The notes under the pieces: generated by a model
The model's database searches: none
Told to the model about the DNA's origin: nothing
The model's input: only the letters and a program-made list of their open reading frames with translations
Position numbers and translations under genes: made by a program
Shown: piece after piece, positions 8,095-10,727 of the stretch
Numbering within the stretch: the stretch's first letter is position 1
How the letters are laid out: the number at the start of each line of letters is the position of its first letter
Assembly (NCBI GenBank): GCA_965214095.1
Contig: OZ243938.1
Span: forward strand, 1,408,001-1,472,000
From: Candidatus Poribacteria bacterium
GTDB taxonomy: Bacteria; Poribacteria; WGA-4E; WGA-3G
Length of the DNA stretch: 64,000 nt
Reading direction: 5' to 3'

Positions 8095-8245
8095 TAAATA
8101 ACATCGTAGATGTAGGTGAACAACCATTCACTATTTACGGTGTTTATAAATTCTACATTGAACGTCCGAATAAACCTAATTGAACTTTTATTCAGGATGG
8201 GTTAGGAAACTACACCTACTCAGATTAGAATATTGAGGTATAGAA

Positions 8246-9265
8246 ATGTTTCAAAGAGTATCTTTTTACACTGCTGGCGTTGTACTACTTATAGTTTTAT
8301 TGTCAACCCCAGTAATTACAGCGGAGAATGAAGTGGAAAAACCGAAAGAACTTGAAGTGGGGATGATTGCCCCAAATTTTACACTAAAAGATGAGACCGA
8401 TACCGACCGAAATCTAAACGAATTCTTAGGTAAGAAAAATGTTGTACTTGCATTTTACCCGAAAGACTTTACAGGTGGATGAACAGCAGAACTTCAGTCG
8501 CTCCGGGATAAATTGAGCGACATAGAAAAAACCGAAACTGTACTGTTAGGAGTCAGTGTTGACACTGTCGATTCACATAAAAGGTTTGTGGACGAAAACA
8601 AGTTCGGATTTTCACTATTAGCTGATACGGAATTTGAGATTAGCAAACAATATAGCGGTATAATGGAAAGGTTCAACGCATCAAATCGTGTGACCTTCAT
8701 TATTGATAAAGCAGGATATATCCGTGCGATTGATAAAAAAGTCAATGTAAGAACGCATGGTGAAGATGTTGTTAAACAAATAAAGGAAGCAATACCGAAA
8801 ATAGAAGTTGGTCAACTTGCACCCGAATTCTTCACAGAGGATGGAGAAGGGAAAATCCATCAACTCAGTAAACTACGTGAAAAAAAGAATGTTGTCCTTG
8901 CATTTTATCCGCGAGATTTTGGACGTGGCTGAACGGCTGAAGTTTGCTCGCTCCGTGATGAGTCGAGCGGTTTTGCTGAACACAATGTTCAAGTCTTCGG
9001 TATTACTCACAACGATCTTGAGTCCAGACAAAAGTTTGCAGAAGATAATAAATTGAACTTCCCGCTTTTGGTAGATACCCAGAAAAATCTTGCATTACTC
9101 TTTGGTGCTGCAAAGAAACCAGACGATGAACGTTTGAAACGGCTGACAATTATCATTGACAAAGAAGGTAAAATCGTCAAGATTGACAAAGAGGTTAACC
9201 CAAGCACACACGGTGCGGATTTAGTGAAATTCTTCAAAAATCCTGAAACACCACAGAACAATTGA
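8246..9265 (+). CDS. Exported tandem BCP/PrxQ-type peroxiredoxin, probable selenoprotein with two Sec (U79, U229), 339 aa
   Basis: ORFs 8246, 8513 and 9053 share one frame. TGA at 8480-8482 (FYPKDFTGG-U-TAELQSLRD) and at 8930-8932 (FYPRDFGRG-U-TAEVCSLRD) fall on the peroxidatic position. Signal peptide present. Confidence 0.88.
8497..8521 (+). promoter_or_regulatory. Candidate bacterial SECIS 1
   Basis: GTCGCTC/GAGCGAC 7-bp stem starting 14 nt after the UGA; loop begins CGGG. Confidence 0.6.
8946..8968 (+). promoter_or_regulatory. Candidate bacterial SECIS 2
   Basis: GCTCG-CTC-[CGTGAT]-GAG-T-CGAGC stem with a bulged U, starting 13 nt after the UGA. Confidence 0.65.
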
Positions 9266-9876
9266 TGAAGCTAAAGACATTAACGGAAATTCGCAATAAT
9301 GTTGCACTCGGGACATCCATAGTTTTCAGTCCGTTTATAGTGCCAATTGTTACTGCTATCTTTGTCATTCTTAAGCATGCAGAAACGAGTAGAGAACTTT
9401 TGCAGTGGCTTGTAGTTATATCAATATTTGTCACTGTACTGCCAATATTTGTAATAATCTTGCTATATCGCTTCTCGAAGGTGAGTAATATACATTTGCA
9501 TGCGAAGGAAGAACGTCTCATTCCGCTCTGTTTCACTATGGTGAGTATGATAGTAGGGACGTACGTCTTATATAAAATTGGGGCGAATAAAAGTATAATA
9601 TGGGTGTGTCAGGCTTTCATTGTTAACAGTGTAGTTTTCTCAATAATCACGCCATTATGGAAAATAAGTTTCCACACAAGTGTTGCAACTGGATGCATTA
9701 TGGTTTTGACTTTATTGGTCAACTTAAATTTGGTTTGGTTATTTCTATTAATGCCATTGATCGCTTGGGCACGAGTATACCGGGAACGACATACTCCCCT
9801 TCAAACTGTCGCTGGGACCCTCTTAGCAATTGTGAATACAATGCTCTTTTTCATTGTTCTACCACCTACCGTGTAA
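9265..9876 (+). CDS. PAP2-like integral membrane protein
   Basis: Multiple TM helices; WKISFH and WARVYRERHT motifs; TGATG overlap with the upstream gene. Confidence 0.7.
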   Translation: MKLKTLTEIRNNVALGTSIVFSPFIVPIVTAIFVILKHAETSRELLQWLVVISIFVTVLPIFVIILLYRFSKVSNIHLHAKEERLIPLCFTMVSMIVGTYVLYKIGANKSIIWVCQAFIVNSVVFSIITPLWKISFHTSVATGCIMVLTLLVNLNLVWLFLLMPLIAWARVYRERHTPLQTVAGTLLAIVNTMLFFIVLPPTV

Positions 9877-9887
9877 AACAAAGTACA

Positions 9888-10727
9888 TTATAAACCACGA
9901 TTTAATGGAGGAAGATCATCCCAATCGCATTGCAAACAGAAAAAACTATTCCCGATTCGTCTAACATCACTGTTGCATTCGGGACAACTTCGTTGGTTCA
10001 CCGTTTCACTTATATCAACATCAGCGGAAGAAGCGTTTGTCATCGTCTTATCCATCGGTATTGCACTTTCACGACTCGTAATATCTTGCTGCACGATTTC
10101 AATCACTTCTTCTGCATTCAAATGAAACGGTGGAGGCGCATTACGGGTGAGATCGAAGAACGTACTCCTATAGAAACGTGGACTTTCTGAGTCATTAACG
10201 CACCTCAGGAATACAGTAAACTTATCTGGAGAGACAAGAAAAGCAGAAGAGTCTACAATATGGTGTTTCGCGTTTATCGCAAGTTCATATCCTTCAAATT
10301 CAAAAATTGAATTGCCACCATCCACCCATATCGTGTCTGATGTGTTTTGAAAAACATCTTGTAGTTCATAGGAACGTGTTACAGAAAGGATTAAGGTATA
10401 GCGTTGATATGGATACTGTGATAGCAAGTCAAACGGCAGAAATGGTCCCGGTTCAGAAGTTTGCTTTAGAAATGCTGTAAAAGCTTTATATACTGCTTCT
10501 TTTGCTTCTCTTAGAATTGCACGATTACTATTTCCTAAGTGGGAATCATTACCTTCCTGAGAAAAAAAGTGGTCATCATTAATGTCTAATTCGGTCTGAA
10601 TATGAACATCAAACGTCATATTCCGATTACTTAATAGTTGTAGTCGTAAGGAAGGTTCATCTACAGTTTTGAGGATAAAGGGAAGCATAGTTAACTCCAT
10701 ATTTGACTGATATTGGAATTGTAACAT
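9888..10727 (-). CDS. Hypothetical protein with C-terminal zinc ribbon
   Basis: Ends CPECNS...FCLQCDWD. Confidence 0.65.
   Translation of the reverse strand: MLQFQYQSNMELTMLPFILKTVDEPSLRLQLLSNRNMTFDVHIQTELDINDDHFFSQEGNDSHLGNSNRAILREAKEAVYKAFTAFLKQTSEPGPFLPFDLLSQYPYQRYTLILSVTRSYELQDVFQNTSDTIWVDGGNSIFEFEGYELAINAKHHIVDSSAFLVSPDKFTVFLRCVNDSESPRFYRSTFFDLTRNAPPPFHLNAEEVIEIVQQDITSRESAIPMDKTMTNASSADVDISETVNQRSCPECNSDVRRIGNSFFCLQCDWDDLPPLNRGL

Follow-up and report, generated by a model that had tools for sequence, protein, structure and literature searches.

The stretch of poribacterial DNA analysed here (the window: 64,000 bases, G000:C1:1408001-1472000, from a genome of 5.2 Mb and 41% G+C) carries at positions 8246-9265 of its forward strand what we believe, with good confidence, to be a functional, conserved and mis-annotated gene for a tandem peroxiredoxin containing two selenocysteine (Sec) residues and probably exported. 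That the gene is intact and that its UGA codons are recoded, taken alone, we regard as surer still. A preliminary description of this DNA had proposed a 339-residue, two-Sec protein, and the proposal is supported by the conservation of both in-frame TGA codons, by the Sec machinery of the genome, by the arrangement of the protein domains and by constraint acting at the level of the RNA.

Translation table 11 breaks the gene into three open reading frames (ORFs; 8246..8482, 8513..8932 and 9053..9265). The three share one frame, as the preliminary description had noticed, and reading TGA as Sec (U) joins them into one frame, 339 sense codons long, that begins with ATG. Its first internal TGA stands in the context PKDFTGG-U-TAELQ and its second in PRDFGRG-U-TAEVC. 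Pfam recognises two AhpC-TSA/Redoxin domains in the product (whole-protein E 2.5e-64). In the Pfam and PDB matches the residue aligned with each UGA is the peroxidatic one, and peroxiredoxin sequence continues after each UGA, which bears out the earlier placement; at the aligned site, Cys paralogues in the genomes of relatives read FYPLDFSPVC. The features of the gene, with their support, are listed here.

8235..8238, forward strand: Shine-Dalgarno-like GAGG, 7 nt 5' of the ATG, read from the sequence.
8246..9265, forward strand: whole coding sequence with two Sec-UGA codons and a TGA stop (translation with TGA as U, two peroxiredoxin domains, full-length two-TGA orthologues).
8246..8323, forward strand: probable Sec-type signal peptide, residues 1-26, ending VITA/ENE (sequence features, AlphaFold helix 2-19).
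8357..8728, forward strand: peroxiredoxin domain 1, residues 38-161, with PKDFTGGU and U-x4-Q (Pfam PF00578; PDB matches Bcp1, 3drn, and AhpE).
8480..8482, forward strand: Sec-UGA 1, codon 79, the peroxidatic position of domain 1 (TGA in 105/105 unique orthologue sequences).
8497..8521, forward strand: hairpin 1, resembling a selenocysteine insertion sequence (SECIS) element (fold of -10.6 kcal/mol, pairing across relatives, synonymous-site trough).
8807..9208, forward strand: peroxiredoxin domain 2, residues 188-321, with PRDFGRGU and U-x4-C234 (Pfam PF08534/PF00578).
8930..8932, forward strand: Sec-UGA 2, codon 229, the peroxidatic position of domain 2 (TGA in 105/105 unique orthologue sequences).
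8946..8968, extended 8934-8978, forward strand: core of SECIS-like hairpin 2 (fold of -17.0 kcal/mol, RNAalifold consensus, deepest synonymous trough).
9263..9268, forward strand: terminal TGA (9263-9265) and a second in-frame TGA directly after it, with no hairpin following (third fold, z +0.18).

Comparison with 60 relatives, representing four families (f1 to f4) of the window's order, yielded a full-length match with exactly two TGAs in nearly all of them, at 48-94% identity. The set analysed comprised 133 tandem orthologous loci (L021-L069, L076-L079 and L083-L162, many of the last group repeating genomes of the first) and 105 unique nucleotide sequences; copies that were paralogous, single-domain or partial (L070-L075 and L080-L082) were left out. 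TGA occupied both peroxidatic codons in 133/133 of these loci, and a Cys codon was present at neither site in any of them, so the two TGAs are not the random nonsense mutations that a search for homologues might have revealed. A motif filter passed 130 of the loci; the other three (L152, L156 and L068) were read by eye, and in L152 and L156 a Leu replaces the motif Pro. The terminal stops of the 105 unique sequences vary (TAA 76, TAG 17, TGA 12). In the phylum as a whole, a match to the gene at E <= 1e-40 was found in 154 of 176 genomes. All of these belong to the window's order, where 154 of 159 genomes including the window's own have one (f1 107/111, f2 11/11, f3 29/29, f4 6/7), and none of the 17 genomes from other families does at that threshold.

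The genome is equipped to decode UGA as Sec; the machinery that the preliminary description had proposed to look for was found complete. Above the curated thresholds it carries selA (616.3 bits, cut-off 268) and selB (355.5 bits, cut-off 242), and selD likewise exceeds its cut-off (361.4 bits) and has an in-frame TGA of its own (KCAG-U-ASK). ARAGORN detected a tRNA-Sec with anticodon tca, which scored 78.1 bits in Rfam, likewise over the curated threshold. This tRNA lies ~150 bases downstream of selB (loci G000:C1:1272212-1273138, selD, and C1:4987445-4989589). Within the window ARAGORN found no tRNA, tRNA-Sec being elsewhere in the genome, and an Rfam scan at gathering thresholds gave no match. 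An alternative genetic code was rejected, because TGA is an ordinary stop that closes 259 of the 1367 open frames of at least 400 codons; none of the selA, selB and EF-type genes contains an internal TGA. A second contig of the assembly (C2, 32,066 bases) has 64% G+C, compared with 41% on the main contig, and is possibly foreign or mis-binned.

Evidence at the RNA level came from synonymous sites. We aligned the 105 unique sequences by codon and calculated synonymous entropy at columns where at least 90% of sequences share one degenerate amino acid. Codons U+5 to U+13 had a normalised entropy of 0.16 (14 columns), versus 0.77 elsewhere (132 columns; Mann-Whitney p 1.2e-9), and the lowest 14 of 139 nine-codon windows all lay directly 3' of one UGA or the other, with the deepest trough of the gene at the site 2 hairpin. 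Leu86 and Leu236 are encoded by CTC in 104/104 sequences, while Leu83 and Leu100 use many codons; Ser240 is TCG in 95/96, Asp238 is fixed as GAT and Glu239 as GAG. As a control, the Cys peroxiredoxin paralogue with FYPLDFSPVC, taken from 20 of the same genomes, showed no trough (0.73 vs 0.69) and no conserved hairpin, and random 20-sequence subsets of the Sec gene still gave 0.15 vs 0.73.

The constrained codons coincide with two predicted hairpins. The preliminary description had pointed to GC stems 14 and 13 nt after the UGAs, the second with a bulge, and folding bore this out. At site 1, positions 8497-8503 and 8515-8521 form a stem of 7 bp (GUCGCUC/GAGCGAC) around an 11-nt loop, CGGGAUAAAUU, and at site 2 the 8-bp core consists of GCUCGCUC, a CGUGAU loop and GAG-(bulge)-CGAGC, extended by a weaker lower stem; both loops begin 21 nt after their UGA. 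RNAalifold returned for site 2 a consensus with the same 8-pair stem and a 6-nt CGKGAU loop over 97 distinct sequences, in which 99.5% of cells were paired, compared with 25.5-39.7% when the 3' arm was slid. Two of its pairs have changed on both sides (C-G to U-A; G-U to A-U and U-A), and in family f4, where the 3' arm carries a Ser-to-Met replacement, a synonymous TCG-to-TCT change in the 5' arm matches it.

Site 1 differs among the families. Those designated f2 and f3 have a hairpin of the site 2 type with the canonical 6-nt loop CGGGAU. Family f1 has lost the upper three pairs (GAG became AAA, AAT or AGT) and instead forms a stem of 18-24 with 36-42 and the 11-nt loop. In this 7-bp register 88.6% of cells were paired over 94 sequences, versus 18.5-51.5% when slid, and three pairs have changed in both partners; at the closing position 38 sequences have C-G, 15 have G-C, 3 have U-G and 1 has A-U, and 37 are unpaired. 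A single structure for site 1 in all families was tried and rejected: the site 2 structure, when imposed, paired 70.1% of cells and the 7-bp register did better.

These elements can be compared with the bacterial SECIS (bSECIS) model set out in Fig. 2 of a 2026 catalogue of prokaryotic selenoproteins (PMC13188914), which specifies an apical loop of 3-9 nt, a stem of 4-16 bp, a G within the first two nucleotides of the loop, a UGA-to-loop distance of 16-37 nt and a minimum free energy of <= -7.5 kcal/mol. The same catalogue states that some bSECIS elements lie outside the model (PMC13188914). Site 2 satisfies every rule as given there (6-nt loop, 8 bp and one bulge, 21 nt, -17.0 kcal/mol). Site 1 agrees with the model in its 7 bp, the G at loop position 2, its 21-nt spacing and its -10.6 kcal/mol, but its 11-nt loop is longer than the model allows. 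Downstream of its own UGA, selD reads CUC-CGGGU-GAG by eye; the minimum-energy RNAfold structure there is another hairpin. We also tried the apical motif CTCCG[GT]G(N)TGAG after an in-frame TGA as a genome-wide probe. It occurred eight times and only site 2 of this gene passed the filter, so the motif is unusable as a general signature.

In the N-terminus, MFQRVSFYTAGVVLLIVLLSTPVITA-ENE, n, h and c regions are visible, with a basic residue, a hydrophobic core and an end made of small residues. AlphaFold modelled a helix at residues 2-19, followed by a low-confidence linker at 20-32. Of the 105 unique orthologues, 98 have a hydrophobic stretch at the N-terminus, the segments of relatives ending in ALA/E, VLA/E or ASG/E, and reading of the N-terminus revealed no lipobox Cys. 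Sequence features and model are in keeping with the N-terminal signal peptide claimed earlier, and the protein is probably exported by a Sec-type signal peptide.

The AlphaFold model, built from 28 sequences, contains two complete peroxiredoxin folds (mean predicted local distance difference test score 85.9; predicted template modelling score, pTM, 0.82). Foldseek placed Bcp1 and AhpE as the best neighbours of the separate domains, at template modelling (TM) scores of 0.84-0.89. The structure search found no solved chain covering both domains, TM normalised to the query being at most 0.42. The NCBIfam BCP model NF006960 scored 177.6 bits summed over the two domains (cut-off 140), and the PrxU equivalog NF040737 scored 90.2 bits, below its threshold of 270; the protein is therefore a relative of the BCP/PrxQ type and not PrxU itself. 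Domains 1 and 2 share 42% identity (E 9e-36), and neither shares more than 33-35% with a solved peroxiredoxin. Because the domains are closer to each other than to the solved proteins, we conclude that an internal duplication of a Sec-BCP gene, its SECIS included, gave rise to the fusion.

The two active sites differ. Domain 1 keeps the Pro, Thr76 and Arg148, the last aligning with the Arg of 3drn and AhpE; Thr76 and Arg148 are invariant in alignment A5. Domain 2 keeps the Pro, Sec, Cys234 at +5 and Arg299, of which Cys234 and Arg299 are invariant in the same alignment. Domain 1 had been described as lacking Cys (U-x4-Q); this is correct for the window's genome, where Gln stands at +5, but does not extend to the family, in which the +5 residue of the 105 unique orthologues is C in 33, Q in 27, R in 21, N in 11, K in 9, E in 2 and S in 2. 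Domain 2 had been described as U-x4-C with Gly in place of Thr. The U-x4-C arrangement is found in 104/105 orthologues. The Gly, by which domain 2 departs from the PxxxTxxC set (PRDFGRGU), is present here and in 80/105 in all (PRDFG.. and PGDFG.. forms), but it is confined to the nearer relatives (family f1), and families f2-f4 retain the Thr (PKDFTGGU or PMDMTPGU). No further Cys follows residue 30 in 99 of the 105.

A number of observations weigh against the reading of 8246-9265 as a functional gene for an exported protein with two Sec residues. In the relative G051, the locus L068 retains both TGAs and has an extra TAA in domain 1, and five of the 159 genomes of the order have no match, two of them being 94% and 96% complete. 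Since the catalytic Thr is absent here, the peroxidase activity of domain 2 is uncertain, and export is argued from features of the sequence. A look for RNA runs that cover the stretch found none listed. The hairpins are unremarkable in shuffle tests: 14/200 shuffles fold as well as hairpin 1 (z -1.56) and 32/200 as well as hairpin 2 (z -0.99). Folding energy alone is thus within chance, and the case for hairpin function is a comparative one. Here too there are cautions. True covariation is thin (three pairs at site 1 and two at site 2), most stem pairs being invariant, and the shuffle control overstates significance, as the sequences are related. For site 1, RNAalifold found no single consensus across all families, the stem register differs between lineages, and the 11-nt loop is outside the 3-9 nt published in the main text of the catalogue.

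If the two-Sec gene is read as we propose, SelB with Sec-tRNA(Sec) would recode each UGA, in line with established bacterial Sec decoding. The hairpin inside the coding sequence would recruit SelB, its apical loop (CGGGAU.../CGUGAU) being presented from 21 nt after the UGA. By the chemistry expected of a peroxiredoxin the mature protein would be a cell-envelope peroxidase, and peroxide would oxidise each Sec to a selenenic acid. In domain 2 this acid may be resolved in the manner of BCP/PrxQ, by Cys234 at +5. Domain 1 would be a 1-Sec site like that of 1-Cys AhpE and would depend on an external thiol or on domain 2. Reducing equivalents would probably arrive through a DsbD-type membrane electron transporter; a DsbD_TM protein is encoded in the same genome (180.8 bits).

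In a variant of this scheme that we consider unlikely, though worth setting out, domain 2 of family f1 is no peroxidase but a built-in resolving or reducing module for domain 1: U229/C234 would attack the selenenic acid of U79 to form an Se-Se or Se-S bond, which a periplasmic thioredoxin-like protein would reduce. A resolving Cys is missing from domain 1 of 72 of the 105 orthologues and domain 2 almost always keeps its U-x4-C; the exchange of Thr for Gly in domain 2 is restricted to f1. The pTM suggests a fixed arrangement of both domains, and the mature protein, mostly free of further Cys, has only three redox-active residues. Yet in f2-f4 domain 2 is fully canonical, so a relay is unnecessary to explain the fusion. 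In view of the 33 orthologues whose domain 1 has its own Cys at +5, a relay is possible but is not something that the family needs. Variants with a single dead domain occur for either domain: L070 (G014:C108:2999-4704), P0018 and P0019 have Ser at the peroxidatic site of domain 1 and keep Sec in domain 2, and P0016 and P0021 are tandem variants with Gly at the peroxidatic site of domain 2. Each active domain is apparently viable without the Sec of the other. A fuller version is more speculative again, and we would give it slightly less credence: a self-contained extracytoplasmic selenium relay, with domain 1 as a 1-Sec peroxidase, domain 2 of f1 as its resolving partner through an interdomain Se-Se or Se-S bond and recharging of the DsbD type, encoded with two independent in-frame SECIS elements, both to be decoded on a single mRNA, of which the first has shifted register and kept its function.

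Another possibility is that the UGAs make dosage depend on selenium, inefficient decoding of UGA 2 (or of UGA 1) setting the ratio of full-length to truncated protein. Two serial UGAs would multiply decoding inefficiency, judging from what is established for bacterial Sec insertion. We think a regulatory role of this kind improbable, given the nature of the shorter product and the lack of any conserved feature pointing to a role for it. The preliminary description had expected failed readthrough at the second UGA to leave a one-domain product; the domain limits suggest instead that termination there would leave domain 1 with ~45 residues of a broken domain 2, an unfolded third of that domain.

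The UGAs might also be read, but not (or not only) as Sec, by near-cognate insertion of Trp or Cys or under a variant code, in which case the hairpins would have some other role. Public gene callers did insert Trp: of the 12 full-length family proteins aligned from a large protein collection, all but P0016 carry Trp at both sites, and in P0016 the first site is Trp and the second Gly. The aligned Trp-bearing proteins come from contigs of ~1-4 kb. (P0002-P0017 had been considered as possible Cys forms and were rejected, 11/12 of those aligned having W at both sites.) Trp at these positions is the mechanical result of translation under table 4, however, and is no evidence on decoding. A peroxidatic Trp would kill a peroxiredoxin, yet both active sites are otherwise strongly conserved. 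Together with the common use of TGA as a stop, the absence of internal TGAs from selA, selB and EF-type genes and the complete Sec machinery, this makes a non-Sec reading very improbable. Least credible of all is a pseudogene, or three separate small genes with the TGAs as true stops: the three ORFs of table 11 and the additional TAA in the G051 relative would suit it, but the TGAs hold the same positions in 133/133 loci of four families whose identity falls as low as 48%, the amino-acid sequence is conserved through and past each TGA, the middle and last ORFs start at internal TTG Leu codons, and pieces severed at the peroxidatic residue could not form peroxiredoxin domains.

Bacterial proteins with two well-separated Sec residues, each needing its own in-frame SECIS, appear to be rare. 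The gene described here is a natural system for the efficiency of ribosomes passing through two serial SelB-dependent UGAs, and it allows study of how a SECIS changes shape while it overlaps a conserved protein motif. Poribacteria are abundant symbionts of sponges. As a near-core gene of a sponge-symbiont order, it suggests that an exported selenium-dependent peroxidase is probably part of life in an oxygenated, peroxide-rich host. Because annotation either splits the gene into three ORFs or inserts Trp, selenoproteome counts for the phylum are too low.

A second gene follows directly and is probably co-transcribed with the peroxiredoxin gene.

9265..9876, forward strand: downstream gene for a multi-pass membrane protein of 203 aa with a weak PAP2 match, its ATG overlapping the peroxiredoxin stop (TGATG).

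The PAP2 match (E 3.9e-4) is below the cut-off. Synteny of the gene holds at 101 of 110 orthologous loci, and the nine most distant ones lack it. We considered this PAP2-like membrane protein as a redox partner and rejected it, given the weak Pfam match and the restriction of synteny to nearer relatives. Beyond it, on the reverse strand (9888-10727), lies an ORF of 279 aa that has no Pfam match, ends in a CxxC...CxxC zinc-ribbon-like motif and stands beside the operon in 83 of the 110 loci.

Other Sec redoxins were encountered in these genomes. In the window's own genome, G000:C1:4477651-4478124 (+) is a candidate selenoprotein of the peroxiredoxin-like redoxin type, with FYRGGW-U-PFC (UxxC) and a hairpin after the TGA; the redoxin sits behind a long N-terminal extension. 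Two loci of genus g5, L081 (G060:C1:655038-657467) and L082 (G043:C1:1502940-1505369), represent a second kind of two-Sec tandem, in which a signal peptide precedes two peroxiredoxin-like UxxC domains (FYRGKF-U-PFC and FYRGQW-U-PFC) and an extra domain of about 200 aa at the C-terminus. Sec redox domains seem to have been duplicated more than once in the phylum. The genus g3 genomes G053, G041, G047 and G038 (L071-L075) have only a single-domain Sec form, PKDFTSG-U-TAEVC, present in two copies in G053. It resembles domain 2 (53-57% identity) and has no obvious signal peptide in its open frame.

Among known systems, the nearest comparison is with the Sec-peroxiredoxins, of which PrxU of Eubacterium acidaminophilum (Sohling et al. 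2001) is reportedly the prototype reference in the 2026 catalogue. The main text of that catalogue lists a peroxiredoxin of family PF00578 with a TxxU motif and one Sec, and a peroxiredoxin-like thiol:disulfide oxidoreductase with UxxC or UxxU and 1-2 Sec (PMC13188914). The protein described here shares with the Sec-peroxiredoxins, as characterised there, the fold, the replacement of the peroxidatic Cys by Sec in PxxxTxxU and the SECIS 3' of the UGA (PMC13188914). It differs from them in its two fused domains, its two Sec residues 150 residues apart, its two in-frame SECIS-like elements and its predicted signal peptide. The UxxC/UxxU selenoproteins of marine metagenomes and Olavius symbionts, as presented in the main texts of the reports, provide a precedent for exported thioredoxin-fold proteins and for two Sec residues in one protein (PMC13188914, PMC1976440). 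Their two Sec residues lie three residues apart in one UxxU motif (PMC13188914, PMC1976440); here they belong to two complete catalytic domains with the peroxidase motif and not one of CxxC type.

Resemblance to the Cys enzymes is closest for BCP/PrxQ (NF006960; Bcp1, 3drn; Xylella PrxQ, 3ixr), with E 2.3e-22 to 3drn and TM scores of 0.85-0.89 per domain, and with the resolving Cys of domain 2 placed five residues after the peroxidatic residue. BCP/PrxQ proteins are single-domain, cytoplasmic Cys enzymes; the present protein has Sec, is duplicated, and lacks the resolving Cys in domain 1 and the Thr in domain 2. AhpE of M. tuberculosis (1xvw/4x1u) is similar to domain 1 (E 1e-21, 33-34% identity) and, like it, has no resolving Cys, but is a Cys enzyme and a separate, dimeric, cytoplasmic protein. 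The overall plan recurs in Cys tandem BCP proteins of metagenomes, for example P0022 (375 aa, 29% identity), which has the same two domains, an N-terminal hydrophobic segment and C-x4-C twice; these have Cys for Sec and are only distantly related.

In the literature searched we found no description of Cys tandem BCP proteins, and none of tandem, fused or double peroxiredoxins of the present kind, though the supplementary tables of surveys may list the protein. For Poribacteria and selenoproteins, the search yielded only work on hydrogenases. A fused two-Sec peroxiredoxin with two in-frame SECIS elements is absent from the listing in the main text of the catalogue, and that text does not mention Poribacteria, sponge, signal peptide or periplasm (PMC13188914). 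We conclude that, while Sec-peroxiredoxins are known, the two-Sec tandem form is new relative to the catalogue as its main text presents it (PMC13188914).

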